In this document: one piece after another, positions 265 through 60,794 of the stretch | How the letters are laid out: each line of letters starts with the position of its first letter | How positions within the stretch are numbered: the stretch's first letter is position 1 | Translations under genes and position numbers: made by a program | The notes under the pieces: model-generated | Database searches by the model: none | What the model was told of the DNA's origin: nothing | What the model saw: only the letters and a program-made list of their open reading frames with translations | Source: Lytechinus pictus | Lineage: Eukaryota | Reading direction: 5' to 3' | DNA: 64,000 nucleotides | Assembly: GCF_037042905.1 (NCBI RefSeq) | Contig: NC_087251.1 | Span: 44,022,001-44,086,000, forward strand

Positions 265-280
265 TTAACATTGTGATGAA

Positions 281-290
281 GGGGATTTCC
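281..290 (+). promoter_or_regulatory. Consensus kB site GGGGATTTCC
   Basis: Exact match to GGGRNNYYCC; function unproven. Confidence 0.4.
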
Positions 291-3755: not shown

Positions 3756-3949
3756 TGGGAAGTTACATTTTATGGCAGATATTTCTGCTACATGGCAGTG
3801 GAGATTGTATATTATTTTCTGCTTAATTTTTCAAGTGGGCAAGACACAATATTGCAAATGCTTTCATTCGACTTGTAACTTATGACCACCATGGAGGGGA
3901 GGGGGGGAGGGGCTTCCAAAGAACAACAAAAGCGCCTCCAATGGATAAT

Positions 3950-6395
3950 GGATCAGATGCATAAAAAGTACCAATTGCTTTTGCTAGACTTTTGCTTGAT
4001 TCCGTATGCATAAAAATGAGCGAGCAAATGCTTTTGCTAGTAAGTTCAAGCAATCGCTAACTGACTGCTAGCATTTCCTTGACGGTTAAGCTATTGTTAA
4101 AAAGCATATGCATGTTTGGGTTTTTCAAGCTCCGTCAGAGCAGCTTGAGCGTTTGCTTGATCAAGTTCACGTGTTTTAATCATGATTATGCACCTGAGAG
4201 AGAACCCCAAGGTGTACCGTAGTCTACATGAACTTGTTTTCTTCCTAATAAGTACAAACCAAATGCCAAATACATAATTTTTTCAAAAAGAAACAAGTTA
4301 TTTTGACACCACGTCTGAGGAAAAGATATAGTAAAGAAGCGGTAATTTGCACTGCCACACCTTTGCGTTCGAGTAGTGCTGTAGCCGAACTGCCGAACCG
4401 AACGGAAGTTCGCCGAACTTGGCACTTCCGAACCGGACCGAACCGAACCGAACACAAAGGCCTGGTTCGGTGGTTCGGTAAAAAAAAAAAAATTGGCACA
4501 TTTATTCACTACGTAATATGAATAAAAGCGGGGACTACATATATTTAAATATAAAATGAAAAAAAAATATTGGTTAGTGATTGTGCACAATAAGAATTCC
4601 ACACAAAATATTTTTTAAATCCACCATTTAAGCTCACATCTTGTCTTTGATTGAATTGTTATCAACTTAAGAATATTTTATTAACATGAATATATTTTTT
4701 CTTCATTAAATGAGGAGACATTTGAAGCTAAACTCGGTATAAAAGTGTGGTTGAATTACGTATTGCCGTAATCGATCGTGATCGTAATCGGACCTAATTG
4801 TTTTCTATTTAATTAAGAAAAAGGACAAGACATAAATTCATTCCTCGTAAATGACAAAGTATGACAGCTTCGGTCTCGTCTTTGATTGAATTTTTATCAG
4901 TCTCAATTTTTTTATTACCATGAATTTATTTATTTTTCTCATAACATGTGGGGAAATTTTAAGCTAAACTCGGTTAAAAAGTGTAGTTGAATTACGTATA
5001 AGTGTAATCGATCATGATTGTGATCGGGCGTCCATGTAATTGTTTTGTATTTAATAATAGAAAAAAAATGACATAAATTCATTCCTTGTGACTGACAAAG
5101 TAATGGTAAAGTATGTATATTTCACCTTCTGAAATATACATATCAATATTAAAGATAAATAAATAAGAGATGAAGTAATGAGGTTAGAAAAAACAGAAAA
5201 GATAAAAATTCAAAGCAAGTCAACGCATGTTCCCTGATCGTGTACCGGAAATGGTTGATAAGGAAAGTTGAAACAGGACGTCCAAACAACCTGCTCTCAG
5301 TTGCTATTACGCTGGTAAAATTCATATTCCGAATTTGAAATGTTTTTCCATTGTCAATATTTTCTAAAAAGTGGTTTAATCTGGTCATTTACTGAAAATG
5401 AAATGATAAATTTTCAGTTCCTTCTTGGTTCTGACGATCAACGCCGAGTGATTTCATAACACTAAAATACACAGTACAGTCCCATGTACTCATTTTCTTG
5501 TTGGAAATATGTTTGAAGTCACTCGAGTGTCGATCTTTCGGGACCAAGAATGGACTGATATTTTATCTTTTTAAAGTAATTGATTGACCAGATTTAACCA
5601 CTTTTCAGAAAATAGGGACTTTCTAAAAGATTTCATATTCTTTGGAATGTGAATTTTACCAGTATAATAACAGTTGAGTGGAGGTTGTTTGTCTACTGTT
5701 CCGACATTCCCGATCAACACATTCCAATCGGAGAAGCTGCGTTTGCAATGGCATTGTAATCGATCATGATCATATCTACATGGAATAATCAATGAACAAA
5801 AAATATTCTGTTCTTTGTAATTCTGTTTCTGTCCTCATTCTCTCGTTATCAATATTATTTTCTTTGTTTTTTTATTCAATTTAAAAATGAAAGTAGAAAC
5901 GACTCTTATTTTTGGTTTCAAGATTGAAATAAATAAAAGAAAGTTATGCAGCAATTTTTATAACCATTCTTTTTAAAAACAAAATTTATTATAAATATAC
6001 GACAGATATTGCATATGTTAATTTGTTCGAGGGTTGGCAATCTTTAGTTTCATGTGTTGATAATTTAATTGCGCATTTATTGCCGAACCCCGAACCGAAC
6101 CAAAGTTCGGAACAAATTTGCCGAACCCTGCCGAACCCTGCCGAACCGAACAGAACCCGAACATGCCGCCTGACTTGCAGCACTACGTTCGAGTCCTGCC
6201 TTTTCTGTGAGTCGTGTTTGCACAGAAAGCAATTGCTTCCTGAAGGCAAGAAAAGGGTTCAAGCACTAGCAAGGGGTTTAATGCATATGCAGTATTTAAA
6301 GCAATTGCTGAAGCATGATCTTTTGCTTGGCTAGCTATTGCTTGTGCTTGAACCGATTGCTTGCCAGCAATTGCAACTTTTTATGCATCTGACCC
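3950..6395. mobile_element. TIR element (host of the nested hAT below)
   Basis: About 20-bp TIR GGATCAGATGCATAAAAAGT...ACTTTTTATGCATCTGACCC; a second, uninterrupted and diverged copy starts at 28520. Confidence 0.75.
4374..6185. mobile_element. Non-autonomous hAT element with CCGAA subterminal arrays
   Basis: TIR TAGTGCTG...CAGCACTA, perfect 8-bp TSD CGTTCGAG (4366-4373 and 6186-6193), many CCGAAC repeats at both ends, internal tandem duplication of about 235 bp (about 4640-5100). Confidence 0.92.
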
Positions 6396-7002
6396 AACGC
6401 AATGACCCAGGTGTGTTGCTATGTCAGTGCATAAATTATCTTTTGATATCAGGCAAACTCGAAGCACTCCAGTCAGAAGTCACCATATAAAATAACACCC
6501 AAGACAGAAATGGTCTATCTAGGCAGATACATAGGCCTGTAGGTGGTGACAATAGGTGTGTTTAAATTACTGGATTACCTGTTTAAACAGAAATGATAGT
6601 CCCTTCTTTTTCATTTTTCATACTTAACGATGGAGTAAATTGTAGAGAAAGGGGGTAAATAATAAAAATAGTATTGTTTTACATAAATGAAAATTAATTA
6701 CAATGTCATAGCATTGGAATACACTGACACAGTTGCCCTGATCAGGATATAAAGAGACAAACAACCTCCACAGTCTACACAACTGCTATCATCCTGTTTT
6801 AACTTCACAATCCATAGGGAATGTCCTTCCAAAGTCCATATTTTCTTATAAGGGGTTTTGTCTAGTGTAATGAATTGGTAAAATATATGTGCATGTACAC
6901 TGTATTCAAATTACATACATGTAATGTAACTTGAATTTTGTTGTAGAAATTAGTCAATTTGTTTTCACAATTGATTTGTTCTTTGTTTTATTATTCATAG
7001 AA

Positions 7003-7063
7003 ATGCAGATGGATGCAGCAGCAATAGAGGATATGGAAGAACTTCTTCAGTCCTTGAAAACAA
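7003..7063 (+). CDS. Rel: Putative first coding exon of Rel (MQMDAAAIEDMEELLQSLKT); exon begins at 7001 after an acceptor, so a non-coding exon probably lies further upstream
   Basis: T-rich tract and TTCATAG acceptor ending at 7000, ATG at 7003, 20 codons + 1 nt, strong GTGAGT donor at 7064. Phase 1 matches the phase-1 acceptor of the RHD exon at 40205. No homology support. Confidence 0.6.
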
Positions 7064-21262: not shown

Positions 21263-21674
21263 TTAACCAACTACTGTAAGGTTGATATAGTCAACAGCAT
21301 TGTATGAAAATTTCAAACAGTGTTTTTACTGTGTATAGCTCCATCTCTTTACCTTATTCGCCATTCAAAATAGTTATGCCCTAGTATTTTAAGACCCAGT
21401 CATTTTATATCATGGATAGTCATGATTCTACACGGTGCTAAAAACTGAAGGTTATGATAAAACAGATCCAGTTACAAACATTCCCCCTCGCGAAATTCGC
21501 AATCAACCTGGTTCATTTAACATTAATGCCAATTGATGAGTTAATAACTCCATGTTAATTCATATTCCCAGGGCCTTAGCAACAGGCAGTGTTTTGTGCA
21601 TCGTATAAGGTCTGTAACCAAAACAGTTCCTTTTCATTAAATTGCATTGATGGGCAATATCTCAGGCATGGGGC

Positions 21675-23942
21675 CAGGGTTGGCACGTTTTAAACGGTGT
21701 GTTTTAAAACATGTTTTAAAACGCGTTTTAAAACACCCGTTTTTTTAACAAAAAAAACGTGTTTTAAAACACCTCATAGACTTGTGTGTTATAAATATGC
21801 ATGGACGTGATTTTACATGAATATATTTTTTATACTTTTTTTCTTAAGTGGTATATTATTTTCTTCTAACTAAATCTCTTTCTTACAACCACTCTTTTTC
21901 TCCTCTCTCTTTCCCCCCTTATTCTCCCCTTTTCCATTGCTTTGTCATGTTCCTTTCCTCCTGTTCAATTATGTAGATCAATCTATATATTCTCATTTTA
22001 ACAAGCATTTGAGTGTTGTGCTCACTTTTAGACAGGGAAAGAAACACTATTTAAAATAAGCTCAAATATGTAATAGTAGTACTTGAATGAAATGGAAGTG
22101 TTGCACAAGCACAATAATATTTTGCAAATAGACAGTATAACTGACATTGTAACCTTGAGGTACACACGAAAGTAGGTGAAACTTTGCGCTTTGTAAAGAT
22201 GAAGAAAAGTAGTTTAATTCAGAATAAGATAATCAGCTAGCAAACCTTAAAGGACAAGTCCACCCCAAGAAAAAGGTATTATGCTGAAAGTTTCATCAAA
22301 ATCGGATGTAAAATAATAAAGTGATGACATTTTTAAGTTTCGCTTAATTTCGCAAAACAGTTATATGCGCATCCTGGTTGGTATGCAAATGAGGGGACTG
22401 ATGACATCACTCACTATTTATTTTGTATGTCGTTATTTTCTCATTGTCGTAATGTGAAATATATTTTTTTTCCTCCCTGAACATGAGTGGAACTACCATT
22501 GTTTTAACATTTTTTGGTTCAGTTATTAGTTGGTCATTATTATCAAATCTGTATAAATTGAAATATTTTATTGTTCAAACAATTAAAAAAACAAAAGAAA
22601 TAGTGAGTGAGGGACATCATCAACTCCCTCATTTGCACATCACTGAGTTGTTATAAATGTTTTGTGAAAAATAAGCGAAACTTTAAAATGTCATAACTTT
22701 CTTATTACATCCGATTTCGATGAAATTTTCAGCATTATGCTTGTATTTTCTCTACTGATTCAAATCAGCATTTTTCTGGGGTGGATTTGACCTTTAACCC
22801 TAACAATCCCAGGGGACTGTAATGGCCCCCTTAAAAATTTCTATGATAAATCCATAAGAACAGCAGGGCCACGCCATATTGTTCAAGACTATTTTTTGGA
22901 TACATGCATGGATATGCGGTTATGATATTACCATGGAGCTATCAACACATTGATAGCTCCATGATATTACACAAGTAAAGCCAATGCAAATTTTTCGCCA
23001 ACATTTTATCTGTATCAATATTTGTACTTTTTGTTAATGATTGGAAAATAATTGCCAATAATTTCCATTAAAAAACGATAAAAAAACCCAAAAGTAACCA
23101 CAAAACTGTACATAAGAAATTAAAAAAAAAAACAGTTAAAACAAACATTGAAAAAAACAATTTGATTAAAATTCCTCAATTAAAGAAATAAGCAGTTCAA
23201 GGGCCTAATATTTATAGATTTAAACCCAAACTTATATTTCATGCACTTGTGGGTACCCGGTAGGATGTGAAAGTCATTGTAGCTTGTCCAGTACTGTGTG
23301 CGCCTCACTAGCGACTGACTGGAATACTACCCAGGGAGTGGAGGATGTGCATACATTGTGTGCGGGAATGACTGATTGAATCCGATGACTGGGTTAATAA
23401 TATATCTGTAAAGCGCTTAGACACGTCGTTCCAATGTATTAAGCACTACATAAAAGCGGACTATTATTATCATTATTATTACTTAAAATTTATATAATTG
23501 ATACAAATGAAATAAAGCATATTGAATAAATGAAATTAAGCTTTGAAAGCCTATAGTGTATAGATTATGTTGTTTTCTTACATAGTGCAACTTCTTCTCA
23601 CCCCTATAGATTGATAAGACTAAAAAACCTGAGACTACATGTATGAGGAATAAACCTATAAAATGTCAACTTAATTTTTTGGCATTCAATTTCCTTGATT
23701 TAGTAATTTTGGGAAAAATATGAACTTTTCTGTTGAAAATTCAGTAACAAAAATTGTAGTCATCTCTTAATACTCCAAAAATGTAATTAAAACATCAAGA
23801 GCTTAAATCATATTGTATTAAGTGTATAATTTAATTGATTTACAGGAAAATTACATCGTTCGTTGGAAAAAAAACGTTTTAAAACAATAAAAAACGTTTT
23901 ATTTGTTTTTTTTAATAAAAAACGTTTTTTATTACAACCCTG
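21675..23942. mobile_element. Non-autonomous composite hAT element, copy 2
   Basis: Same TIRs, perfect 8-bp TSD CATGGGGC (21667-21674 and 23943-23950); contains a full TTAA MITE (22251-22793) and a SINE 3' part (about 23250-23480). Confidence 0.92.
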
Positions 23943-24300
23943 CATGGGGCTTTGGTCATTGCATTATCAAAAGTGAACGTGAAAGGAGTTGATGATATTT
24001 TAGATCAAGCAACGTTAGCCACATCTTACATAAATTTTGCCTTTGGTGGTGTAATTATTACCACAATTATTTCCATATATATACATTATTCATTTTAGTG
24101 TAATTATTACTCTTTTGAAATATTGCATTATTTGTAGCATGAATTTGAAATATCCAATATAGAGGCCTTTAAAGGGAAAATTTGGAATGAGTTAATATAT
24201 TTTCATATTAACATACCATTGAAACATCATTGAAATGTGGATTAGGTTGAGAGGAGTGGGAATGGGACCAAAGTAATACTTTTGCCATATATCCTACTAG

Positions 24301-28519: not shown

Positions 28520-29080
28520 GGATCAGATGAACAAGTAGTAGCAATTGCTTTTGGTAGACTTTTGCTTGGCTTTGCTTGATTTGGTATGCATAAAAATACT
28601 AGTAAAATGCTAGTTAACTCAAGCAATTTCAAACTGCCTGCTTGCATTAGCTTGATGATTAAGACATTGTTAAAAAGCACTTGCTTGGTTTTTTTTCAAG
28701 CTCCGTTAGAGCAGCTTGAGTGTTTGCTTGATCAAGACGTTCATGCTTTATAATCAATATTAAGAGAGAACCCCGAGGTGGTCATGAGCCTACATATTCT
28801 CTTCCTAGTAAGTGCAAACTGAATGCCAGCTATATAATTTAATTCATTAGAAACAATATAGAAGAATAGTTTGACACCACGTCTTAGGAAAAAAAAGTTA
28901 CGTTAAAAAAGTGGTATATTTCGCACTGCCTTGTCAGGAAACCCTTTGCAATATGAGTCCCGCCTTTGTTCTTTCAATCATGTTTGCACCAGCCTGACGT
29001 CGCTATTGTACAAGGCACTAGTTAGTAATAGCTTGTTGACAAGAAAAAGTTTTATGCATACAAAATAAAGCAATTGCTAA
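28520..29080. mobile_element. Second, uninterrupted and diverged copy of the 3950-6395 host element
   Basis: Colinear similarity (GGATCAGATG..., TTTCAAGCTCCG..AGAGCAGCTTGAG, TTTGACACCACGTCT). Confidence 0.75.
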
Positions 29081-29381
29081 AAATCTGCATGTTTATATGC
29101 ACAATAGTGCTGTGCACATGGCCCTGGGAAGGGGGGGGGGGGGTGCTGAAGTACCCCCAGGAAATTTTCATGGGGTGCCGCATGTTTAGGTTGACAAGCA
29201 AAAAAAAAAAGTTATTGCTCCCAAATGAAGGAGATTTGGGAGCATCAACTTCGTGCTTGTCAATTTTTTTCTTACTAAAATCCCCTTCATCTTGGAGTGA
29301 TTTTTTTTCTTTATTTAATTTTTTGTTTGTTTGACATTTCCCCCAGCACCGCCTATTTCAAGATCATTCCCAGGACCCTTG

Positions 29382-31192
29382 CATACCTGCCAACCATTCC
29401 GATTTTGGCGGAATTATACCGATTTTTTAGCCTCCATTCCGAATTCCGAATTTTTAAACCAAAATTCCGATTTTTAGGTCAATCAATATAGTGTTGAAAT
29501 TATTGAAACGGCTGTATGATGCGACTAACGCATAAGCGGCTGTAACATACGACTAACGCATAAACAACTGGGGCGCACGGCTAAGTGCTAAGTGCACAGT
29601 TCCATTGCAATTGCATGTGAAAATTACGAGCAGCGGCCACAGCGGCGCGGCCGATATATTAGCGTTGACTTCCGGAACAAAATGGCGGCTGACATCGGCT
29701 CGCGAAAGTGCCAGTTTTCAGTGAGGACACGTTTTCAAAATCCACGAACATCGGAAAAACCGTGAAAAATTCACTTTTTTAGACCCCTTGTTTCCTAACT
29801 ACGATGTATAGAATTAAGGATGGTGATATTTTTGACGCGAAATATGGTGATTTAGTAAGATAATTTCACTTTTTATTCGAGGTTTTGCTCTTTTCGCCGG
29901 ATGATTTTGTATTGTGGAATGAGTTAGTGAATGAGTCGTGTACTGGTGTCTAGAGTGTGCTGGTAATATCATTGATGAGTCTGCTTACCGGCGCCTGCTT
30001 ACCCGGCCGATCGGCCGCGCCGTGCACATCGGGAGGCTCTGCCGCAGTTACTCAAGTTTATCCCTACGCAATGTTAAATTGATCTGTACTTTATTTTTTC
30101 GAATAATTGTCAAATTTGTGAGAAAGAAAGCGGCAATTATCAACTTTCGAGTCAAGTTGATCCATCGGAGCCGAACGCCAAATCTACTTGCTTCGCTTGC
30201 CTAAACTCCCGGCGCCCGAGTTGCAGCGCCTCAGCCTCACAGTCTCATCGGCGCACCGCAAGTGCAGTGGTGGGTGCGGGTCGGGCGTATTCCGCCGTAT
30301 TACTTCGGCTCCGTTTTTGTCATGGCTGAAAATATGCTTTCTTATGCCAACAAGCACTTATCTAATAAAGGTTATGATATAACCTTGTCCTCAGTCACTA
30401 CTCCTGTGTGGTGAAATATAAACATGAATAAGATGACAATGTTTGGCTTATTTTGATGCATATGATAGACTTGATATAATTATAAATGATAAATAAATGT
30501 TCTGGATCTGGATGTATACGATGCAGGGCCCTCCTGGGCATAAACGCATCGGGTGAGAGAGGGCGGGGTGAGGATTAGAAAGCTCTGTCAATGGCCTTCT
30601 TGAATGAGCTTGTCGATGTTGAGTTGATGACAGCGTCACTCAAGTGATTCCATCACTTGTTAGATTTTTTTGCACTCAGTTTTTAATACAGTAGGCTAGG
30701 CCAACTTGAATCTGAATTAATGATACAAAATATCCCTTGGCCCAAAACTCAATTGAATTCTTGAAATTAGTTTTTTTCTGATTAAAAAGAGAATCTTTCC
30801 AGAAACTTTCCAACAATAGAGGGCCTTACAAAAATATGCTCAAAATCAAATTATTCCTAAATCTATATAGATTTCAATGAAAACAAATCACACCTGAATG
30901 AAACTGGGTGTATTTTTTTGTCACAAACGTGATATCTTAAAGACCCTTGTTTTAATGTTTGATTGATAAATGATATTATATTACATATAAGTAGACTAAC
31001 GTTACATGTAGGTCATCCTGTGGTATGGTTAAGAGGGTAAATTTGCTTTAAAAAGGGTAGGGAAATGCTACTTTTACATGCAGAAAATGCAGAGTCCCTA
31101 CCATGGGAGGGGGAAACCATCTCGCGCGCGACCCGCTCGGCGCCCTCGTGACTTTGATACTGATTTTTTATTATCAAAGGTTGGCAGGTATG
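29382..31192. mobile_element. Non-autonomous hAT-like element with 6-bp TSD and GC-rich interior
   Basis: TIR CATACCTGCCAACC...GGTTGGCAGGTATG, direct repeat CCCTTG at 29376-29381 and 31193-31198, TTCCGA subterminal repeats. Confidence 0.85.
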
Positions 31193-31936
31193 CCCTTGCT
31201 GTGTGGTGCCGGCTGGCGCCCAGAGAAACCACAGAGTTCATATTAATTCAGAATCACGTTCGTTAGTTCCAAGATGTAATCTGATTACTGATGGGCACAT
31301 ACTTGTATTTCATTTATACTTCATTAATTTGTTTTTCGGGAAATAGCTCGTGTACACTGGGACTGTAGAGTCTGCACCCACCAACTATTGAAATGGACAA
31401 GTACGTTCTCTCAAACTAAATTTGTGAAATGTTCAAGTTCAAATATTTTTGCTTACTGTGCAACTGTCAAAGATAAAATATATTCACAGGTCAATGATTT
31501 CATTGCCTATACTTAATCTAACAAAATCTTGATTTATGAATATTCTACTCAATAAAATCATCACTTTTCGAAGGCTAGTGATTTATGAAGTACTTTTCTG
31601 TGGTTTTGTCAGATAAATTTGCTCTCAGCCAAATTAGATATGAGGATTTAACATCACAAATTCCTTCATGAAGCACTCCCCCCCCCCCCCCCCCCGGTCC
31701 TCATTTCTCATATAAGCATCAACACATAAACTTTGAATATCAATATTCATTAATGTTTTCAGTACAGAAGTAGGCAATTTATTAGGGCAAATTATATTTT
31801 ACTTTCATTGTGAAAACTGAGAATCATTTTAGTCTAATAGATTCTTTCCTTATAATATTTCTTACAAATGCCACAAAATGATAGAAGATTGGGCTCTTAC
31901 TGGTACATTGAACCTTGTTACATGCCAGTACATAAT

Positions 31937-32210
31937 ATGATGATGATAATAATAGCTGGATTTTTAAAGTGCTTTTTGACTGAGGATACAAAGTAGTGCT
32001 ATTAATACCCTGGCTAATAGCCATGCTGCGGGACTGCTCTGGCATTCAAGGAAGTTCTTCCTACCGGGCACCCATTCACCTCACCTGGGTCGAGTGCAGC
32101 ACAATGTTGGTGAATTTCTTGCTGAAGGAAAACTCGCCATGGCTGGGAATCGAACCCACGTCCCTCAAATTGAAAGACGAGAGTCATAACCACTAGACCA
32201 CGACGTCCCC
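31937..32210 (-). mobile_element. tRNA-derived SINE
   Basis: Same head, core and tail as 10561-10876. Confidence 0.85.
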
Positions 32211-33189
32211 CAAATATGATGATGAAAATAGCAAGTTGGCATATGTAACTCTGAGTATACAATAAAAAAAAATTAATAGGCCTATAGCTATTGGACTTTT
32301 TTTTATTTAAATGCTTTTGATAAGCCAGTGTACAGTGATATCCAATTCTTACTCCATGTGAAAGTCTTGTCAGTACACTTGTTTATTTTATTAGGAAGGG
32401 CTGAAAAGATTGTAATTTCATTGTGGGATATGGATTGTGCAGATAAAATATGACATCCATAGCCTACTTTCAACTTCATTCAGGCAATATCATCCTTAGA
32501 AAGACAAACTTCCAATAATTAATTAAGTGCTACATGTATAGAAAATATAATTGGATTGAAAAAAAGTAGTTTGAAACAAAAAATCAATTGATACTCTTGT
32601 CGGAAAACAATTTCAAGACATTGATTAAGATAAGACTGTGGATTCTCTGAATACAATCTCTGTATTCCATAAAAGGAAGTTGGTACTTCATATGCATAGA
32701 TTCAAGGAAATGCTTTTAATAGTTGTTGAAACAGGACTTTGCTTTCTGTGCGTGCGCTAATAATGCATGACATCATGCATACAGTTTAGTGTCTGATAAT
32801 GATTCTGTGATCTATGTAATTGATATAACCTATCACTTTAGTAACAGATGGTGTGTGACAAGGATGTGCATGTACTCTACAGAAGTTCTGAATCCATTTT
32901 CTTTTAGCGGATTGGATATCTAATAGGAATACTTTCATGAGTTGTTCTCCTTTAATTCAACTAACTTGCATTTTTGATTAATTATGCCGATGGAATATCA
33001 TGTGAAAAAATAGTTTATGGCGATTAACTGAAGCATTTTCACGCACATGACATCATTAACCACAGTTTAGAGAGTAGCGCTTCATGTCCATGTGCATATA
33101 GTATTGCTTCAGGGATGACTCTGTTTGGTCAGAATGTCATAAATTGTTGTGTGCTACATTAAAAAGCTGAACTGACACCACTATTGTAG

Positions 33190-33324
33190 ATTGTGACAGT
33201 GTTGACATATTTGCCAAGATGAATAGTTACTATCATCATCCACCGATTAAGACGGAACCTGTATCGCCAGATGCAGATCTCTTTGCGGTGTATCTCAAGG
33301 ATCTTATGATAGGGGATCATTGTG
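33190..33324 (+). CDS. Rel: Optional Rel exon: alternative first exon from ATG 33219 (MNSYYHHPPIKTEPVSPDADLFAVYLKDLMIGDHC) or symmetric 135-nt cassette exon from 33190
   Basis: Open frame with coding-like composition and a GTGAGT donor at 33325 in phase 1. The upstream TAG ending at 33189 keeps the frame with the 7003 exon, but its pyrimidine tract is weak. Confidence 0.65.
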
Positions 33325-33714
33325 GTGAGTAGTCCGTGGGTATCACTGGGTCAGGGTAAGGATTTGGAAACGGGTTCACGTTTAAAATCGTGATTGTATT
33401 CTCACACATTGTTTATGTAAACACAACTACTAGTCCCAGTCTCAAACTCTTCTCGCATACTACCCCTCCAGTCTACCTCAACTGAAGACATCGACTACAA
33501 ACAGTACCCCTCTGAATATCTTTTGGTACACATGACACCCGAACTTGAGGGGGTCCGAAACCCAGCCACAGCAATTGCGCCGCCAAGCAAGGCATTTTAT
33601 CCCTGAGATGCCATGTTCAAAGACTGGCTATGTTTTAGACTTTCTGTGACTCGGCGAGAGATCGCAGGGATTGTATATAGGCCTAATGTTATTGGAGAGA
33701 GGCCTTACATATAT

Positions 33715-34135
33715 TGGTGGTACGGGGACGTGCCGCTTTAATGACCCCCTATTTCAGTTCTGTAGATACTCCGAATGACAAAAAATCATTCAAAAGCCGC
33801 CCCGCCCCGCTCTCAAGACCCCCGTTACGAAACATCTCGGTTCCCTAGCCCGGCCAAAACTGTCCAGCGCAAGCACCGCATGCGAGAGCTGCACGCACGG
33901 CTTCACAACTCCCTCCGCTAGCAGCTCCATGCACTGCTAGCGTCCACATAAACATGCACAGCGCTAGCTTGTACCATAACTACTGTACTGCGATCCCGTT
34001 CCGTAGACCCTGTTTTTCACACCGCCCAGTATATATTTAGTTCCCAAGACCCCGTATTTTACCCTTGTGGTCAGTTCCTTAGACCCCCATTTCAGGGTTT
34101 CGTGAGGCACACCCCCTTCAAAATATAATTTAGAT
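33715..34135. repeat. GC-rich interspersed repeat with GACCCC motifs, resembling the 62031-62557 element type
   Basis: GGGGACGTGCCGC start, repeated (A)GACCCC motifs, GGCACACCCC near the end. Confidence 0.45.
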
Positions 34136-34381
34136 GATATATACATGTGCATTTCTGCTTGCAGTACATGCGATTCTCACTGATATTTAATCATTCTGAA
34201 ATGCCCACAATCTTTGTGCATACACAAATCTTCCTTTGAATTATAATCAGCTTATCTCTCATGATGTATATGGTACTGATCTTTATGTCAACTCTTTATG
34301 TCTACTACTTATTCAGTTTTCATTGACAAAGAAAACATATAGGCCTATATAGGCCTACATATACGCAGTCTAAGACTATAT

Positions 34382-34975
34382 TCAGCTCCAAGTTCTGTCT
34401 AGCTCTAGGTTGGCCGGATCATGTCCTGGTGGGTCAGCGCCAAACTTGTACTTCACAGGTTCACATCTCCAATACTTATCCAGTCCATTCTCGGAGCTGT
34501 GGACACTGGGTGCATTTACTAATTCATTACTTAGGCTATTCCAAGGTTTCCTCATTCTTCTGTAAAAAGAATTCTTACGTTTCTCAGTTACTGACCTCGG
34601 AATGTACAATTTTTTATCATGACCTCTGGTAGGCCCATGCACCTGACCCAAATCTGGCACTACCTCCTGGTCATACCTGTGACATAACTTGTATGTTTCG
34701 ATCATATCTCCTCGCGCACGGCGATATGCTAATGTAGGAAGTTTTAGTTGAATCAATCTTTGTTCATATGGAAGGTTCTTTACTTCAGGTACCAACTTAG
34801 TGGCCCTTCTTTGTACATTTTCTAGTGCTTGAATATGTTTCTTTTAGTATGGACTCCATACTGCATGAGCATACTCCAAATAAGGTCGAATCAATGCTTT
34901 GTAGAGGAGTAAGAATTTCTCCTTGTGAAGATCAAAAAACGTTCTCCTAATTAGATCCATTAGCCTATTGGCTAT
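34382..34975 (-). mobile_element. 5'-truncated CR1/L2-group LINE 3' end (RT C-terminal region), decayed
   Basis: Minus-strand [39 protein letters not shown]...L..RRARGDMIETYK...TRGH..KL, typical of CR1-group ORF2 C-termini; in-frame stop. Confidence 0.9.
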
Positions 34976-35239
34976 TGGCTGAAAACAGATATGTATCAAT
35001 TTGAAACACAGGATAGTAAATGCAATGTAATTGGTCTTATGATATTGTCATAAATATAGAGTTTACATTCAGCCTGATGCCAAAGTGAAACCTACAGATT
35101 ATATATGTAATACAGTCGTTAGACACACAGATGGTACACTGTAGGCCTACACGGATAGAAGCATGGTCCATGCATATAGTATTACATACCAGCAATGATC
35201 TTGCGTATCATGCAGAGTTTGTGTGTAGGTGGAAGAAAA

Positions 35240-35250
35240 GGGGATTCCCC
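35240..35250. promoter_or_regulatory. Palindromic 11-bp kB site GGGGATTCCCC
   Basis: Identical to the classical MHC class I-type kB element; lies in unique intronic sequence. Confidence 0.5.
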
Positions 35251-35882
35251 TTTGCCTGCATTACTCATGCCTAGCCTTCCTTTTCAGACCCTGGAGGTGA
35301 TTGCACTGAAATGCATACAATGTATATATTTCTTTGTAAACACTCTTTAAGTTGGTGTGTTGTTATACCTGTCATTTTAAGAGAAAATATACTTGAGCTG
35401 TTTGATTTCTAGGGACTTTATTTACATGTTTAGTATATTTCAATGTGTGTATGGTAAAGAGAAATAATGTCTGAAATACTATTCTAATCCCCAGCCTGCC
35501 TGATTGATCTTAAGTTATGCTGTATATGACCTCATTGACTGCCAAAGCAAGCCCCCCCCCCCCCCACACACACATGCAAGCTCACAAACGCTTTTGACAA
35601 ATCACCCATTGGACAGTATTAGGCAGTCTGGACAGTATTTGTTGCCATTTTTTAGGGGGGGGGGGGAGGCTGATCATGATGATAAATGAATTAAAAATAC
35701 AGATTATTTTAAGAACATATATGTCTATTTGGGCCTACCCAACCACATCATGTATAAACGAGTGCATGAAGATGTCCCTTCATTTTACTATAGACAGGTG
35801 AGGTCTATAATTTCTTTATGGGTGCTTTAATACATATAGTTGCCCTGCTTAAATCGGGAGTAAATATTTTTCATTTTCATGA

Positions 35883-36020
35883 AATAATGATAATGCTGCT
35901 GCTGCTGCTGCTGATGATATGATGATGATGATGATGATAGTAATGGTGGTGATGATGGTGATGATGATGGTGGATGTGGTGGTGATGATGACGAGGATGA
36001 TGATGATGATGATGATAATA
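35883..36020. repeat. (GCT)n/(GAT/GGT)n trinucleotide microsatellite
   Basis: Direct reading. Confidence 0.9.
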
Positions 36021-36524
36021 GTGATTACATCATTATTACAGTGAGGGAATTCATCATTACAGTGGGGGAAATTATTTGAAATGAAATTTTAAAAAAAGCA
36101 GATTTTATTAATCAATTTTTTTTTCAAAAACTGTTTTTTTCTTCTTTTTTTTTCATCCATTAGATATGACAGGATGCAGGTGTTACATGGGTCTAGAAAG
36201 GGGAATATTATGAGCTTGTTTAACTGCTCAAAGGATATTGCAACATGATTTAATAGTCCTTCTGTATTAGTCAAAGTGAAACTAAATGTTTTTGGTAGTT
36301 GGTACCTGGTAGTACACAGGCATACATGCATATCAAATATGGATTCATTGTATTACATGTAGGTCTATATGTATGTGGTGGACACTGGTGGTACATGGAT
36401 TGTAAACAATGTGTGTGTTTTTTTGTGTGCATGCGTCATTATTCAGGTACTAGATGTAACCCGTAGGTTGAAGTTACACACTTTTGTAAATCAGGACAGT
36501 TATTATACATTACTTCGTCAATTA

Positions 36525-36826
36525 AGCGCCGTGGTGTAGTGGTTCTGACTCAGCTCGCCTTGTAATCAGAGGGTCGTGTGATCAAATCCCACCCTGGCCT
36601 AGCACCCTTTGGCAAGGAGTCAATCCACTCTCACCCAGGTGCTAATTGGGTACCGGTGCGAAACAAACTTCGATGTGGTTGGTTTAGCATGTGTTGGCCT
36701 AACAGGCCGCTATTTGCAACAACAAAAAAATGAATCCAGTGACTGGGTAATAATTATTTTGAAGAGCTTTAAGCAGTCATAGATTGATATTGCACTTTAT
36801 AAGATTATTAACAAAGTATTATTATT
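36525..36826 (+). mobile_element. tRNA-derived SINE, diverged
   Basis: GGTGTAGTGGTTCTGACTC head, CCCTTTGGCAAGG and CACCCAGGTGCTAATTGGGTACC core, ATT tail. Confidence 0.7.
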
Positions 36827-36932
36827 AATAAAATTATTCTTGTACTTTACTACATATGCCACTTTCTTTTTACTATACATGTAGATACTTTTGAAATACG
36901 TTGTTAGGAATCCTAAGCCACAGGGCTCTCAC

Positions 36933-36964
<32 letters not shown>

Positions 36965-38272
36965 TGCCAACCGGACAACCTATACATTTTTTAGGTTGCC
37001 AAATGGCAGTTCAGGTAATCACTGATTATTGTAAACTAAAAATGTGCGATCCATCAATAGCAAACCCTTTCAAAATATTGCCTGTTTCTGACAGCACTAG
37101 AGCTGCAAAGGTCTATTAAATCAGTTGGTATTTGATTCTTATTTAATTTGTTTTCAATAATTTTTTTTTATGAACTCCAAACTTGCTGTTCTGGTGAATC
37201 TTCCACTATTTCACTATATCCTATTCCAGGCCTTCCAATATTGTCTTTAGAACCTAAATTATCGATTGATTGATTGATACAATTTATTGTCCAATTAATG
37301 GAAATATGATGCTCGCATTTGATATCAAAAATACAAATACAAGGACTACAAATTAAGCAATACATCTACTATATCAGCAAAATTGCACTGCAGCTGAATT
37401 AACAAGACATGGTTAGTGTTGAATTGTTTTCTTTGTACCCCCCAAAAAAAAAAGATTAAGAGAACTTTCTCTTTGTCCTATATATATATATTTTTTTATA
37501 TTTTGTCATGATTTCGTCAAGATTTATTGGCTGTGAATTAGTGATAATTGAGGAAGTTGACCATTGTTTATGATTTCTTTCCTTGGAACGTCAAAATGGT
37601 CCTTATAGCATAGTAATAAGTGGAGAAATGGAGCAGTACATGGACATAATACTGCTCCAAGTTGTGCTTGGATAATTGGAGCAATATAAAAAAAATTGAA
37701 TGTTAATTGCCCATGCTTGAATTCTCAAATCTTTAATATGATTTTAGATTTCGATGTAGGTACCCCTTCCGCTGCCCCCCCGATGCAACTTATTCCCCCT
37801 TTTTAATAATCTGTGGTGTTGACTCTTGTTCAGGCTTTCTACATGTATCAGAATCCCTTCTTATTTGTCGTTCACCGGTTTTGATATGAATTCCCTGAAA
37901 ATTGTCTTCTTTGATATTTGGAATGAAGTCATTCTGTGGGCAGCCATCGGAGAAAGAAGAGCTGGGCCGTGTTGAATAAAGAATTTTTACGATAACTGCA
38001 TAAATTCTATAACAAGTTTATATTCAACGAATCAGATTGAAGAATTTCAGTAGCTTTAAACTGTTATTGAATTTTTTTTGTAACAAGGTGAGGCCCCTGG
38101 ATGTGGATTGTTGTGTGGAATTTTTCAGTTAGGTAACGGAACTTCTCATCTTGTGAGGATGGATATTGAAATCTTTAATGATGTCTTAGTCATGAACATT
38201 GGTGAATTCTTTTATGTATACTACTGTAAGTACAATGAAATAAAACTTTTCAATTTTGAATGTGACATGTAT

Positions 38273-38427
38273 CGGGGGCCGCGGAACGGTTTTCAAAGTG
38301 GGGGGGGGGGCTGACCATGCAAAATATCACAATCCTATGGTTATTTTTACGTTTTTGTACACGGTTTTGGAAAAAAAGTGGGGGGCTGATGACCCCCCCC
38401 CCCAGCCCCCCGCTTCCGCGGCCCCTG
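38273..38427. mobile_element. Short GC-ended MITE (hAT-like ends)
   Basis: GGGGCCGCGGAA...TTCCGCGGCCCCTG inverted ends; TSD not clear. Confidence 0.65.
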
Positions 38428-40204
38428 TGTACTATTGTAGGCCTACATGTATCAACCACTGACAAGGGATAGAAACTTTCGTACTTCCACTTCCTGCATA
38501 TTTACATGTTTAAAAAAGCATGTAACAAATCTTGGTTTCGTATTGAGTTCACTTTGTTTGGTTTTATGCTAAACTTTAGTTTATTTCTCATTTCGGCATT
38601 CGATATGATAGGCCTACTTTCATGTTCATAGATAGAACACTGGTGGTAATAAAAAGAAGACTTACTTCACTGCAGTTTCATCTTGGACACCGTTCTCATT
38701 CCAATCCTAAAACTGGTTTTCAAAACCCACTTCACATGAAACGGTCTTATTGCTACAGGAATGCTCTCAGTTGGGTGACATGTTTGAAATGGCAGCATAG
38801 ACATTCTCAATTCTATTGAAAATTTGTTTATTGATCGAGAGAAATGTGTTGTAGCCAAAAGCTCAATAATATTGTTGCAATAAACCTCAATTCATTACAA
38901 TTACAAAACCATACTACCAGTGATGATAATAAATGGAAGTACATATTAAATGACAATGAAATTAATTATTACATCAAAGAATTTTGTATCCAATAATTAA
39001 GCCAGATGACAAGTGAAAATGGGGGTCAAGTTTTAAGAGACAAAAAACAGGATGAGAACGGGATGGAGAGAAGAGATGACAGGATGAACATAGATGAAAG
39101 GAAAAGGAGAAGGGCAGACACTGGAGGGAGTCCGATAGAGAAAGAAAGGGAAAGGATAAAAAGGAGAGATCAAAAGAGAGGGTAGGGGGGCAAGGGTAAT
39201 AAAGGAAATACTTGAAACACAGCTCAATACTAAAGGTGGTTTTAAAGAATGAAACAAATAATAAATACAAAACTAAAACGTATTGTAGGCTGGACATACA
39301 TATCCTTCAAAGGTGAGGGGAGCATAACCTATTAGGTAAATGCCATGTGTGAATTATTGCATTCATATTTATGTCCCAATTATTGATCAGGCCTATCGAT
39401 TTCAATTAATTAATGTCCATGGAGAATCAAATTGGCATTTCTGTGCTGATAGTGGTATCAAAGTTTCTTTTGTATAATCTGGAGGACTTTGTAATGAGTT
39501 TGGTTTCATTTTCATTCTCTTATCTCTGTATGCTCTGAAGTCCTGATCTCAAGTGCCATAAAAGAAGAAAACAAGCGGGAATGGGGGTCAGAAACATGCA
39601 AAATTATAATGAGTTCCTCAAGCACTGGATAATGTGTATAATTGTGAAAAGATATACATGTACTTGAATTTTCATTTGCATAGACTAAAGCTTTATTGTT
39701 AGATATTGGTCTTCATCCCTTGAATGAAAATGTGATTGATTGAATATTGTTCATTTGAATTCAAAATTGTATCACCTTTCTAGATCATATTGTCAAGATT
39801 ATGATGGGGTTTTGATATGAACCATCCCTGTTCATCGAATGGAGTTTCAGTGTTGCTAGTGTCCATTAACACTCCCATTTACACTCTCCATGGATTTGAC
39901 CCTTGACCTTGGGTCATTCATATCATGGCAGTCTTCTGTTTGTATACATCCAGTTTGGGATGATATTTTTGATTTTTTAGAATAAAGTCACTCTACTTGT
40001 GATAGTCAACCAGGTCAGATGTGTATCAACTATTATTCTTAGAAATTAGAACTTTAGGTTAAATAACAAAATTATCTTCCAAATAATCATTCCACTGAAC
40101 AATTACCAATGCTAAAAGTATAGATCATTGTGTCGCTCATACTGGTTTAATTGTTGATCACATTATATGTATCTATTGTTCATGTTCCCTCTTTTCTGCT
40201 ACAG

Positions 40205-40377
40205 GTGGGCTATCACCAATTGGTCCCACACGAGCTACTTCCGAGCCGCATATTGAGGTAACAGAGCAACCGAAACAAAGGGACCATCGATTCCGCTACC
40301 CGGTAGAAGGTCGCCAGGCTGGGAGCATCGCCGGGGAAAGATCTACGTCTGACCTTCCATCATACCCAACAATTAGG
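40205..40377 (+). CDS. Rel: Rel exon: RHD N-terminus and DNA recognition loop (GLSPIGPTRATSEPHIEVTEQPKQRDHRFRYPVEGRQAGSIAGERSTSDLPSYPTIR)
   Basis: Pyrimidine tract + CAG acceptor, GTAGGT donor, RHD signature sequence. Confidence 0.96.
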
Positions 40378-41409
40378 GTAGGTTCATTTGAAATGCATTC
40401 TGGGATAGGAAGAATGGATAGTAGTCGTAATAATGCTTATCACTGGAAAATGTGTTCCTATGCGCTCTTTGAAAAAGACAGAAAAGAAATAAGAAAAGAT
40501 TGAAAATTGCTGGCAATGGTAGCACTAACTCATTGAAAATAAATATATTAAGTATGTTTTCATGGTAGATTTAAATTTGGGTGTAGAATAGTTCTTTACA
40601 TACCATGGGGTGGTATTCTAAAGTTAAGGTGCAGCATAGGCAAAGGATCATTCTCCATAAAACTTGGTCTAAAAACTAGGACAGTGTAAAAGATCCTTCA
40701 GAGCTGATCTAAGATTGCAAGGTGGTACATACTTTTAATAAAACCTTTGCTAAAATATTTTGGAGCGATTGCTGTGAGACACTGATAAGCTAGAAGCACT
40801 ACTTAAAACTTTACATGCGACTGGCAAAGATTGTCTCATTTTGTATCTATTAATTTAAAAGTGCAGTAAATGAAGACATCTATTACTTTAAAAGTGCAGT
40901 AAATGATGACATTTTCTGATGGAAAATGTTTATGACATGGTGACATGGTGAAGTGGATATTACTGGAAATCAAATGTGTGGGTGAAACTAAAACATCTGA
41001 CCAGTCTCTCAATTTGCCTAATGGAGGATTTAGAACCTTTCCGTTGTCCAAGGGTTGACAGTCAAAACTACTATTGACCGCATAAATCTGATGTGCTCAT
41101 TGTAACCTGGGAAATTGGAACGTTTTTTTTTTCAAATACGCATTCAATGAATCAAAGCTCCTGCTAGTACTTGATGCAAGTTATTGGAGTTGTAATCTTT
41201 TTCAGTATGATTATTCGATTTTCAGAGACATAAAATTGTTAATTCTTGTAAATAATTAATTTCTTTTGATAAAAATGGGCCATTCTAGGAATGAAGTGTC
41301 TTAAAATTGAATTGAATCCAACCAAATGGAAATATGTTGCTATCGGTTTTAAATCATCTGTTTAGATGTTTGATAATATGCTCCATGAAAATGTTGTATT
41401 TGTTTTCAG

Positions 41410-41558
41410 GTTGCCAATTTGAATGGTCGAGCCAGGGTAGTGGTATCCTTGGTGACGAAGACTGATCCTCCCCAGCCTCATCCCCATCGTCTGGTCGGAG
41501 ATAACTGTAAAGATGGCGTCTGTGTCATTATGATCGATCCACAAAGACCCGAAGCAGT
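41410..41558 (+). CDS. Rel: Rel exon: RHD (VANLNGRARVVVSLVTKTDPPQPHPHRLVGDNCKDGVCVIMIDPQRPEA)
   Basis: TTTTCAG acceptor, GTAAGA donor, SLVTK/PHPH.LVG/C.DG.C motifs; phases 0 and 2 fit the neighbours. Confidence 0.96.
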
Positions 41559-41610
41559 GTAAGAAACTAATATCCTTTGTACCATGTAAATTGAGGTGAC
41601 TGCTTCTTAA

Positions 41611-41945
41611 AGGGATGGTCCGGGCTGAAAATATTTATATCTTAATACATAGAGTAGAATTCACTGAGCAAAATGCCGAAAAAAGGTGAAAACAGTCGTC
41701 TTGAATATTCATTAGGTGGGCTGATGATGTCACATCTCCACTTTCCGTTTTCTTATGTTATTACATAAAATCATAATTTTTTCATTATTTCATACTTGTG
41801 TGAATAATATGTCTCCCTTATAATGAAATAAGTTGCAGCAATAAATATCTAATGCACTAAATCAGTTGTCATTCCAATTTTTCTACTTCTTGGAGGAAAA
41901 ATTTGAATAAACTTCATTACATATAATAAAATACAAAAGAACAAG
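41611..41945. mobile_element. Truncated TTAA-type MITE (AGGGATGGTCC family)
   Basis: TTAA|AGGGATGGTCCGGGCTGAAAA start; inverse paralogue of 50107-50729. Confidence 0.75.
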
Positions 41946-43157: not shown

Positions 43158-43399
43158 CTTTCGTAAGATTGGAGTGCAGCGAACGATGAACAAAGAAGTG
43201 GAGAACTCGCTTGCAGAGAGAAAGAAAGCCAATGTCAGACTCTCCATGGAAGTAAATAAGGGAAAGACTGGGAAGAAACACAATTACGAGATGAAGGCTG
43301 TTCGACTCTTCTTTGAAGTCTACATTGAGACAAGGGAATCATCCGGCGTCTATGATAGGTATCTTACACCTATCACATCAAGTCCCATCTATGACAAGA
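43158..43399 (+). CDS. Rel: Rel exon: RHD (FRKIGVQRTMNKEVENSLAER...AVRLFFEVY...PITSSPIYDK)
   Basis: TACAG acceptor, GTGAGT donor; matches ORF 43144..43449; F..LGIQ-like, VRL.F and S.PIYD motifs. Confidence 0.95.
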
Positions 43400-46956: not shown

Positions 46957-47052
46957 AGGATACGGTATTGTCTATCTGTCGTGTGAATACCAATACTGGC
47001 AGCGTGGAAGGTGGTGATGAACTCTTCATCCTATGTGAAAAAGTTCAGTCGG
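46957..47052 (+). CDS. Rel: Rel exon: start of IPT/dimerisation domain (KDTVLSICRVNTNTGSVEGGDELFILCEKVQS)
   Basis: T-rich TAG acceptor, GTGAGT donor, L.ICR...GS..GGDE.F.LC.KVQ motif. Confidence 0.96.
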
Positions 47053-47547: not shown

Positions 47548-47642
47548 ATGATATCAAAGTGAAATTCCATGGGAAGGACCCAGAGACAAACCAACCCTGG
47601 TCAGCGTTTGGTGAATTCAGTCCAAGTGATGTTCACAGACAG
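47548..47642 (+). CDS. Rel: Rel exon: IPT domain (DDIKVKFHGKDPETNQPWSAFGEFSPSDVHRQ)
   Basis: TTTCAG acceptor, GTAAAT donor, DI.V.F...W...G.FS..DVHRQ motif. Confidence 0.96.
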
Positions 47643-48978: not shown

Positions 48979-49123
48979 TTTGCCATTGTCTGCAAGACGC
49001 CTCGCTTTGTGAATCAGAACATCAAGGCTGCAGTGGAGGTTAGTTTTCACCTCTACCGACCGTCGGATGATGATTCGAGCATGGACATGACTTTCACCTA
49101 CAAGCCACGGGAATCTGTCCTTG
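48979..49123 (+). CDS. Rel: Rel exon: end of IPT domain (FAIVCKTPRFVNQNIKAAVEVSFHLYRPSDDDSSMDMTFTYKPRESVL)
   Basis: TTTCTCAG acceptor, GTAAAT donor, AIV..TP, RPSD and FTY.P motifs. Confidence 0.96.
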
Positions 49124-49801: not shown

Positions 49802-49897
49802 GACTTGGAGATATTGAGAAGAAAAAGAGAAAGCTGTCTCACAAGCCACCAGAAGAATACAACAGATATTTCGCCAACAGTGGCCGACCAGTCAAGA
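49802..49897 (+). CDS. Rel: Rel exon with the nuclear localisation signal (GLGDIEKKKRKLSHKPPEEYNRYFANSGRPVK; NLS at 49819-49833)
   Basis: TTTACAG acceptor, GTAAGT donor, basic cluster just after the IPT domain as in other Rel proteins. Confidence 0.93.
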
Positions 49898-52151: not shown

Positions 52152-52304
52152 CGGAGACCCTTGGAGCGAGTGCCCAATCCTGCAGTGGTGCTCCATTAAG
52201 TCATCCAGTATCCAATGCACCATCCACCCTCTCATTAACACCGGTTACCATGACAATGCCATCAACAGACACCAGACGAAGTCTGCGTCAGCATCTCATG
52301 AGAG
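52152..52304 (+). CDS. Rel: Rel exon: Ser/Thr/Pro-rich linker (TETLGASAQSCSGAPLSHPVSNAPSTLSLTPVTMTMPSTDTRRSLRQHLMR)
   Basis: TGTAG acceptor, GTAAGG donor, symmetric phase 1-1, open frame (ORF 52127..52360). Confidence 0.85.
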
Positions 52305-53062: not shown

Positions 53063-53610
53063 GGGACCCATCTCTTGGTGTGAGTGATGACCCCCAGGCT
53101 CTTTTTGGTGACTTCACATTCACCGGCGGCACCGCACAGGTACAGGATACCAACAACATACCGGTCACCTACACAAGCGGAGCCCACATGAGCTCCAGCA
53201 CCGTGACGCAACATCAGCACCAGCCAGTGAGCACCGACCAAGGTACCCTCGATATCCCACACGAAGCATTTTTGAGGTCCCTGGCGACGGCTCAACCGAT
53301 GGAGGAAGATTCCGTCGATGAGGAACGCACCACCAGCCTTCAGAGAATAAACGCCATAGCTTTTGAGCTCATGAGTTCGTCTGCAGGCGTGTCTGGAGGG
53401 GCCACCGGAGGCGGTGAGCGCGTTATTGTCGAGCCAATGCCAGATACTGCATCTCTGAATGATTTAACATACAGTGTTCTGGAAACAATAGACATTGCTG
53501 CCTACCAGGACGTCGGAAGTGATATCGTATTTAGCACATTTGAGGGCTCCGATACGGAGAGAAATAATACAAGCAACAGCAACAATAGCAACAATAATCC
53601 GATGGGATAG
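53063..53610 (+). CDS. Rel: Rel terminal coding exon: acidic putative transactivation region ending ...NNSNNNPMG*
   Basis: CTCTCATTTAG acceptor, phase 1, long open frame (ORF 52987..53610) with GC-richer codon-like composition, TAG stop. Confidence 0.88.
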
Positions 53611-58970: not shown

Positions 58971-60794
58971 TGGATAAGAGAGAAAAATTAAATCCGGCCT
59001 CCAGTTCTATCTCCTGTCCCCAGATTCTTTCCAATCATGACATCCGCTGCCTTCTCATGACCTAATAAAATCAGTGTTTTTCATACTATTGTGTTTCAAC
59101 AGTTCAATTATTCAGTTTATTTTTTTCCAACTTAATACATATATTGAATTTCAAATTACATTAAATAATTTTTTTAATTTGTATTCCAGTTAATTGTTAT
59201 AAAAATCATCCTCGACAAAATTATTCAGATTATTTATTCAAATGTTCAGTTTTATAAGGCAGTCTATCCCAACAACGAATTTATTTTAATTAAAGAAAAA
59301 TGAAACAAGCATAGTTACGGAAGCTTTTGTGCCATTGAGGGCGAGATGATTTATCAAGTCGACAGAATGACTGTTAATGTCAAAATGGGGAGCTGCGTTT
59401 TCATCTCGGCCGTTGTATACTGATCCCTTTAAGTTCTTCCTCCTCCCTTTTTTCCTTCTTATATTCACATTTCGATCCTTCTCTTTCTCCCTTTTCCGTC
59501 TTCCCTATCTCCCCCCCTCTCCGTTTCCATCCTTTTCCGTCTTCCCTATCTCCCCCCTCTAGCTCCGTTTCCATCCTTTTCCTAATTTGTCTGTCTGTCT
59601 CTCTCCTTTCCCCTCCTTTTTCTCTCTCCTTTTCCCTTTTTGCTTTCATTTTATTTCCGGAGGGGGCGCGGGGGGGGGGGGGGGCACCAAGGAGGCCCCA
59701 GGCCCAAATGGATATGTGCATGCAGATCATTGATGCATGATTCCTTTTATTTCTTAATATGTTGTCATGATGTCCATGACAATGTTGGTAATGTCGATGA
59801 TGACGTCGACGACGATGAAGAAGTCAATGATTTCGATGGCATTTATACTTTTAACTGTTAGTGAGATCATTACTTAATGGTTAAATACATGTATCTCCAT
59901 ATATACCTATTTGATTGATGAAAGAATATGATACTATGATGGCAAAGATGGAAATTGGAAATTTTGATGTATTTAACAGATCAATTGACCTGGTGAGTTC
60001 TGTGTTCTATATGCACGACTTTACCTGCAAAACGATTTGTTATGTAAAAATAAACTTCAGAATGATATATCCCAAATTGTACGTTTATTATTTTCAAAAC
60101 AAATGGATCCCTTCCATAGAATTAATGAATAGGGAAGTGACCAAAATCATTGTTTTCCTTCTCTTATTATTGTCTGGTAATATTGAATCAAACCCAGGCC
60201 CAAAATTTAAGTTTCCATGTGGAAACTGCGAAAAGTCAGTAAAATCAAATCAGTGCGGCCTTCTTTGTTCCACTTGTAAAAGATGGTATCATATTCACTG
60301 TCAAGAAATAAGCCTGGAAATATATTCAAATTTATATTTGAGCCCCGATGAAGAATGGTTTTGTTCAACCTGTTTTTTACCATCTTTCTGTGAATCTTTA
60401 TTTGACGACTACAATAATACTATTGTAAACTGTGAGAAAGAAATTCGGGTACCCGAAAACATTCCAGAGCCAAATTTACAACAAAAAAACTCGAAGGATT
60501 CAAGTTTACTTTATCCAGATTTTGAAAACATATCTGCTGTAAAAGGTCTTCACTTTGTACATCTAAATGTTAGATCTATTCTACCAAAAATTTCAGAACT
60601 TCGAATTCTATTTAAGAGAAAGAATCTTGCAGTCATTGCTTTCACAAAAACATGGCTAAATGACTCGGTGAATGATGAAGAAATCAATATAGATGGATAC
60701 AAAGTAATACGCAATGATAGATTATCAGGCTCTGGGGGTGGTGTATGTTTTTATGTCAGAAACGATATTGCATTCAATATCATAGATGTTTTAA

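Follow-up and report, generated by a model that had tools for sequence, protein, structure and literature searches.

SUMOylation that depends on phosphorylation has been described for the PDSM (phosphorylation-dependent SUMO motif) proteins HSF1, HSF4, MEF2, GATA-1 and ERR-gamma (PMC1524954, PMC10821541). Repression by isoform-encoded SUMO sites is likewise already known. In TFAP2A, an alternative first exon supplies isoform 1a with a SUMO motif (K10) that makes this isoform a repressor (PMC3219183). In NFATc1, the optional C-terminus of isoform C adds the repressive SUMO sites K702 and K914 relative to isoform A (PMC7953626, PMC10821541), and the common site K349 depends on these isoform-specific sites (PMC7953626). 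SUMO also lowers the activity of Dorsal, RelA and RelB (PMC9252280). The verified SUMO site of Drosophila Dorsal, K382, reads IKTE and attenuates signalling (PMC9252280, PMC11330768).

The Rel gene of the sea urchin Lytechinus pictus can be compared with each of these systems. It contains the same exact psi-K-x-E-x-x-S-P consensus as the PDSM proteins, also in a transcription factor; function was shown there, whereas for sea urchin Rel it is predicted from consensus and conservation, on an optional exon. Human TFAP2A resembles it in having alternative first exons that are conserved and bring their own ATG, and in a SUMO motif near residue 10 of one short N-terminus. However, TFAP2A is not a Rel protein and no phosphorylation gate is described for it in the available part of the source. 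A strong site is missing from its other isoforms, whereas a consensus behind the nuclear localization signal (NLS) is kept in every urchin Rel form. Repression by TFAP2A was tested experimentally; for the urchin Rel it is predicted. NFATc1 is a factor with a Rel-similarity domain that gains SUMO sites through the choice of isoform and so becomes a repressor. It differs in that the sites belong to an optional extension of the C-terminus instead of a first exon, that it belongs to the NFAT family, and that the available text mentions no PDSM. Dorsal is a SUMO-attenuated member of the Rel subfamily, and the urchin VKTE (residues 366-369) likewise lies behind the Rel homology domain (RHD) and NLS; the Dorsal site is a single one and, in the available parts of the sources, is not described as isoform-specific or phospho-gated. 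The echinoid Rel would thus work like a known kind of isoform-coded SUMO control, and not as a strict on/off switch of the TFAP2A type. As the principle is established, the surprise is limited. An earlier note on this DNA had stated that no such switch was known in Rel proteins; this stands for the Rel subfamily, for which none was found, but NFATc1/C (from the superfamily) and TFAP2A precede it. In the literature outside subscription papers and supplements, no report was found that deals with the Rel isoforms of sea urchins or with a PDSM at the N-terminus of Rel proteins.

The window, i.e. the whole analysed stretch of 64,000 nucleotides (contig NC_087251.1, positions 44,022,001 to 44,086,000, forward strand), contains the following features of the gene.

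7001-7063, forward strand: alternative upstream (internal) exon with ATG 7003 and phase-1 donor at 7064, placed by a tblastn match to the N-terminus of Strongylocentrotus purpuratus isoforms X1/X3 and by alignments
32857-33324, forward strand: alternative first exon, seen in an RNA contig, with its 5' end at 32857 or farther upstream
32857-33218, forward strand: 5' leader of 362 nt with 12 upstream ATGs
33219-33324, forward strand: coding part of the PDSM exon, 35 codons plus 1 nt, start of XP_054758205
33246-33269, forward strand: PDSM consensus IKTEPVSP, with the K11 codon at 33249-33251 and the S16 codon at 33264-33266
33273-33317, forward strand: acidic/hydrophobic conserved segment, residues 19-33, with a DLFAxYLKDL core
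33325-33330, forward strand: phase-1 donor GTGAGT, used in RNA
33188-33190, forward strand: AG proposed as a cassette acceptor, unsupported, inside the first exon
40205-40377, forward strand: first common exon (exon 2) and start of the RHD, from RNA contigs, exon chain and Pfam
41410-41558, 43158-43399, 46957-47052, 47548-47642 and 48979-49123, forward strand: RHD exons, from the exon chain
49802-49897, forward strand: exon with the NLS KKKRK and the V-K of the shared psi-KxE, K367 codon at 49894-49896
52152-52304, forward strand: exon completing VKTETLG, the SUMO consensus common to all isoforms
53063-53610, forward strand: last coding exon with the acidic C-terminal tail and the stop

Translated together, ten exons of the window between the ATG at 33219 and the stop at 53610 match RefSeq XP_054758205.2 (600 aa) letter for letter. 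A search with the translated PDSM exon found two proteins, S. purpuratus isoform X2 and the 600-aa L. pictus 'putative transcription factor p65 homolog', the latter with 100% identity in the matched region. Pfam places the DNA-binding and dimerisation parts of the RHD at residues 52-223 (PF00554) and 230-331 (PF16179). The NLS KKKRK follows at residue 342 of the 600-aa form. No C-terminal ankyrin repeats were found in the four proteins scanned, each with two Pfam families, and the closest solved PDB structures to the urchin RHD are those of p65/c-Rel. By its sequence, the locus is a Rel-subfamily gene of the RelA/c-Rel/Dorsal type, and its acidic C-terminal tail is a putative activation tail.

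The earlier reading of the PDSM exon was confirmed from the sequence: positions 33246-33269 encode IKTEPVSP (K11 and S16 of the 600-aa form), the exon ends in a phase-1 GTGAGT donor at 33325, and its own ATG at 33219 (GCCAAGATGA) begins the annotated 600-aa protein. The motif matches the PDSM consensus exactly, is flanked by proline and followed by acidic residues, and falls outside the Pfam domains. The strict pattern [IVL]KxExxSP was seen twice, against an expectation of 0.1 matches in the six frames of the window, as obtained from 60 Markov simulations. The second match, at 26531, was set aside as chance; it belongs to a stretch with further copies in the window (a repeat). Since a strict match thus arises by chance elsewhere in the window, the motif alone is weak evidence, and it is conservation that carries the weight. 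In the AlphaFold model (mean pLDDT 47), residues 1-46, with a pLDDT below 50, and residues 333-600 are of low confidence; this is compatible with disorder, a weak indication given the shallow alignment of 12 sequences. The ESM Atlas returned no usable match, and a pattern scan detected no kB-like site near the exon.

RNA was mapped on positions 29000-41650 from four of the 20 listed runs, namely one set of assembled contigs (run X1) and three raw runs (X18-X20). That the contigs of run X1 represent RNA is a guess, although both exon joints are of the GT..AG kind. Contig 5 of this set spans 32857-33323 without a single mismatched letter and is spliced to 40205 across GT..AG. The 33324-40205 junction is therefore present, and the donor at 33325 is used by a transcript, as had been anticipated. 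No coverage was found in run X1 over 32376-32797. As the contig passes 33190 unbroken and the preceding bin is empty, the exon acts as a first exon whose leader measures 362 nt or more. It combines its own ATG, a 5'-extended transcript without an upstream joint and a splice to the common exon, which together define an alternative first exon, and a separate promoter would lie near 32.8 kb. The leader holds 12 upstream open reading frames of 1-19 codons, every one of which ends before 33219. These 12 upstream ATGs cast some doubt on how efficiently the PDSM isoform is translated; they possibly confer translational control, or the transcription start site possibly lies nearer the ATG.

As a candidate promoter, the CpG-rich stretch at 29.5-30.5 kb was rejected: it has no joint to the exon, lies between 18-nt inverted repeats and is covered by variant-rich reads. 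It forms the core of a 1.8-kb element (29381-31193) with strand-biased RNA reads, many variants and no joint to the Rel exons, which is probably a transcribed transposon family. Elsewhere in the window, an element of roughly 2.2 kb was noticed by eye in two similar copies, at about 670-2795 and 21670-23945. The ORF fragments at 34382-34843 (reverse strand) and 59915-63847 (forward strand) resemble LINE endonuclease/reverse-transcriptase remnants.

The use of the PDSM exon is optional. The exon-2 contig of run X1 starts exactly at 40205, at a depth of 153.4 versus 43.8, and G40204 plus 30 letters are contained in the joining contig. In a graph of 31-letter words, this break implies a second 5' partner of exon 2 whose last base is not G. 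With its final A, the 7003 exon would fit as this partner. In L. pictus the 7063-40205 junction is deduced in this way; it is absent from the loose contig ends displayed, to which 879 further ones have to be added. The raw runs X18-X20 cover exon 2 about 3, 6.5 and 4.5-fold (summed about 14x), and 3, 3 and 2 of their reads span 40377-41410, whereas the depth over 32376-33641 is zero in all three. A rough Poisson estimate for the missing first-exon reads is 3e-6, although the reads are paired and 5' ends are under-covered; the three runs come from a single study, with about 6% of the reads. Dips in depth may stem from the human-read filter, but the same first-exon stretch did pass this filter in run X1. 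Among 22 echinoid records, 16 contain a 7003-type exon, six the PDSM exon and none both, where the records are gene models, mostly from RefSeq, and not independent experiments. An exon that is absent from 16 of 22 records, and from three runs that cover exon 2, is not constitutive. The 7003 exon would be its mutually exclusive partner in L. pictus. The records examined from L. pictus and L. variegatus show the PDSM form only.

According to the earlier note, the exon could also be included as a 135-nt cassette behind the 7003 exon, and the isoforms would be either SUMO-repressible or non-repressible. Formally, the cassette is possible: 33190-33324 (135 nt) lies behind an AG and is free of stops in frame after the 7003 exon, the AG at 33188-33189 is the sole stop-free in-frame acceptor among six in-phase AGs of the leader, and splicing the exons together gives the predicted lengths of 585, 600 and 630 aa. 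Since rare forms are lost from assembled contigs, a cassette of minor use is conceivable. Nevertheless, the run X1 contig continues unbroken through 33190 to 32857, none of the 22 records combines both exons into the 630-aa isoform, and the pyrimidine fraction before the AG is 0.53, compared to 0.65-0.88 at used acceptors. No preceding exon was seen to use this acceptor, rare use aside. The N-terminal alternative is a choice of first exon and not cassette inclusion, and the cassette model, which also fails on its strict division of the isoforms (see below), is very improbable.

The 7003 exon is itself internal, being preceded by an AG at 6999-7000, and orthologues often have further coding exons ahead of it. 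For these exons no tblastn match occurred in the window among the matches listed (10 orthologue N-termini), and a pattern scan of positions 1-7000 gave no convincing MT.. micro-exon. Where the 7003-type exon ends, the Diadema models differ by four residues. The N-terminus of two D. setosum models is long and unrelated, perhaps a read-through from a neighbouring gene.

The PDSM was expected to be conserved in related species, and this is the case. IKTEPxSPD is found in L. variegatus, S. purpuratus, D. antillarum and D. setosum, and the P-IKTEPxSPD block is identical at 9-10 of 10 positions across the five species. Over the whole exon, the identity to L. pictus is 35/35 for L. variegatus, 31/35 for S. 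purpuratus X2 and 23/35 for both Diadema species, which belong to a different echinoid order than Lytechinus. The Diadema split is dated to about 250 million years ago (PMC7299941). The Diadema motif reads IKTEPQSP, so that position 15 is free to vary (V/Q) and S-P is fixed, which matches what the PDSM consensus allows. In comparison to Diadema, the motif block retains 9/10 residues, the preceding eight residues 2/8, the exon-2 linker 7/15, the RHD 216/280 and the C-terminal tail 94/222. Outside the echinoids, a profile of the exon found only the six known echinoid carriers among 339 proteins, and no such N-terminus occurs in the records from crinoids, sea stars, brittle stars and hemichordates, which comprise few isoforms per group.

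The hydrophobic segment behind the motif (residues 19-33) is conserved as well, with 15/15 identical residues in L. variegatus, 14/15 in S. purpuratus and 11/15 in Diadema, so that selection on the exon need not concern SUMO alone. DLFAxYLKDL is a possible activation or cofactor helix. It might be asked whether this is a real alternative first exon that acts through its promoter, its leader and this helix, with K11 little modified or modified independently of S16. The conservation of the segment agrees with such a view, as do the 12 upstream ATGs, the acidic M-x-x-L/V/I-L segment that the alternative 7003-type exon encodes in all echinoids aligned, the acidic residues behind the motif, which could act without phosphate, and the existence of a shared site at K367. 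It is weakened by the motif block being the best-conserved part of the exon, with its invariant S-P next to a varying position 15, and by the chance of about 7e-5, estimated by shuffling, of a strict PDSM in a 35-aa stretch. Overall, this explanation is considered rather unlikely.

A second SUMO consensus is shared by all isoforms. [VFLC]KTE(TLG) lies about 25 residues behind the NLS in all 22 echinoid records; in L. pictus it reads VKTE with K367, an intron splits its coding sequence (49891-49897 / 52152-52160), and residues 366-378 around it are identical to Diadema at 12 of 13 positions. In a family scan of 150 HMMER representatives of Rel/NF-kB proteins, 148 were parseable, and an NLS could be called in 123. 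In the stretch of about 80 residues behind the NLS, [IVL]KxE occurs in 46 of these 123, compared to a mean of 6.7 and a maximum of 15 in 500 shuffles; the representatives are related, so the 46 are not independent events. The next 82 residues contain [IVL]KxE in 11 representatives. Carriers of the post-NLS psi-KxE include a brittle star and two hemichordates. The post-NLS psi-KxE is possibly an ancestral SUMO site, and Dorsal K382 and urchin K367 would be positionally homologous. No family-wide enrichment was seen for N-terminal psi-KxE (8/148 versus 4.7 in shuffles). PDSM-like matches were found in 6/148, five of them C-terminal to the RHD; the one N-terminal match is the sea urchin Rel exon, the only predicted N-terminal, optional and phospho-gated consensus among the 148 representatives.

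In S. purpuratus X1 and four Diadema records, a further exon precedes the 7003-type exon and encodes IKTEPEE or VKVE downstream of a basic patch; an L. pictus counterpart was not found within the window by tblastn among the matches listed. For a strict on/off switch, the other isoforms would be without a strong SUMO consensus, and here the post-NLS site is present in 22/22. With this site and the extra N-terminal psi-KxE in some 7003-type isoforms, the idea of 'non-repressible' isoforms is doubtful, and isoforms without the PDSM exon are probably not SUMO-free as judged by consensus. What stands of the proposed switch by promoter or splice choice is the optional first exon; its strict repressible/non-repressible split does not. 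As all isoforms share the post-NLS consensus, the choice of start probably adds a signal-controlled brake and does not turn SUMO on or off.

The preferred reading, to which a probability of about 0.5 is assigned, is that the IKTEPxSP exon carries a predicted phospho-gated SUMO site that would dampen its own isoform, on top of the likely K367 site common to all. S16 would be phosphorylated by a proline-directed kinase, and phospho-S16 would recruit Ubc9 to K11, as in HSF1 and MEF2. SUMO at K11 may then recruit a co-repressor or mask the adjacent DLFAxYLKDL segment. Isoform choice would in this manner decide on the presence of a kinase-timed negative feedback on Rel output, with a graded effect. 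A dependence on isoform-specific sites of the kind known for NFATc1 K349 might also hold for K367 on K11.

The outcome of a phospho-dependent modification of K11 could also be non-repressive, in the form of activation, nuclear retention, an acetylation/SUMO exchange similar to MEF2A, or turnover. SUMO leads to nuclear anchorage in NFATc2 and to repression in NFATc1 (PMC7953626), an older study of Dorsal saw activation raised by SUMO (cited in PMC9252280), and the PDSM lysine of MEF2A switches to acetylation (PMC1524954). Most of the cited cases are repressive, however (Dorsal in vivo, RelA, RelB, NFATc1/C and TFAP2A-1a), and a non-repressive outcome is regarded as quite unlikely.

The recognition loop of the urchin RHD reads RFRYPVEG (window 40288-40320) in all aligned echinoid records. 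At the position of its Val, 142 of 146 family representatives have Cys, two Val and two Ser. We take the Cys missing here to be the redox-sensitive C38 of RelA. A second Cys (p65 LGIQC) is replaced by Arg in the urchin RHD. A second Rel-like protein of the crinoid Antedon, with an N-terminal extension of 475 residues, also has Val at the loop position. The RelA SUMO lysines K37 and K122, numbers that are in part our assumption for the aligned positions, correspond to P and M/N, respectively, of the urchin sequence.

Going beyond the dampening of one isoform, it may be speculated, tentatively and with considerable doubt, that euechinoid Rel possesses an N-terminal SUMO selector with three positions, which the choice of promoter would set and which would have persisted since the Diadema split, and that its control was rewired to isoform-coded SUMO. 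The first position would add no site (a short MT.. start plus the 7003-type exon), the second a phosphorylation-independent site behind a basic patch (IKTEPEE in S. purpuratus X1; VKVE in Diadema) and the third the kinase-gated PDSM (exon 33219-33324). An RHD without the recognition-loop Cys, and apparently without the RelA SUMO lysines, would then reflect a move of control from redox/RHD modification to N-terminal SUMO.

Sea urchins serve as a model for the gene networks of innate immunity. If the dampening role of the PDSM exon is true, a SUMO brake could be triggered by a kinase in some Rel isoforms but not in others, and the gene would offer a natural, isoform-resolved test of phospho-SUMO feedback on NF-kB output. 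Knock-downs and annotations that treat Rel as one protein would then miss this isoform difference. For the family as a whole, the scan suggests that a Dorsal-type post-NLS SUMO consensus is widespread in Rel proteins.
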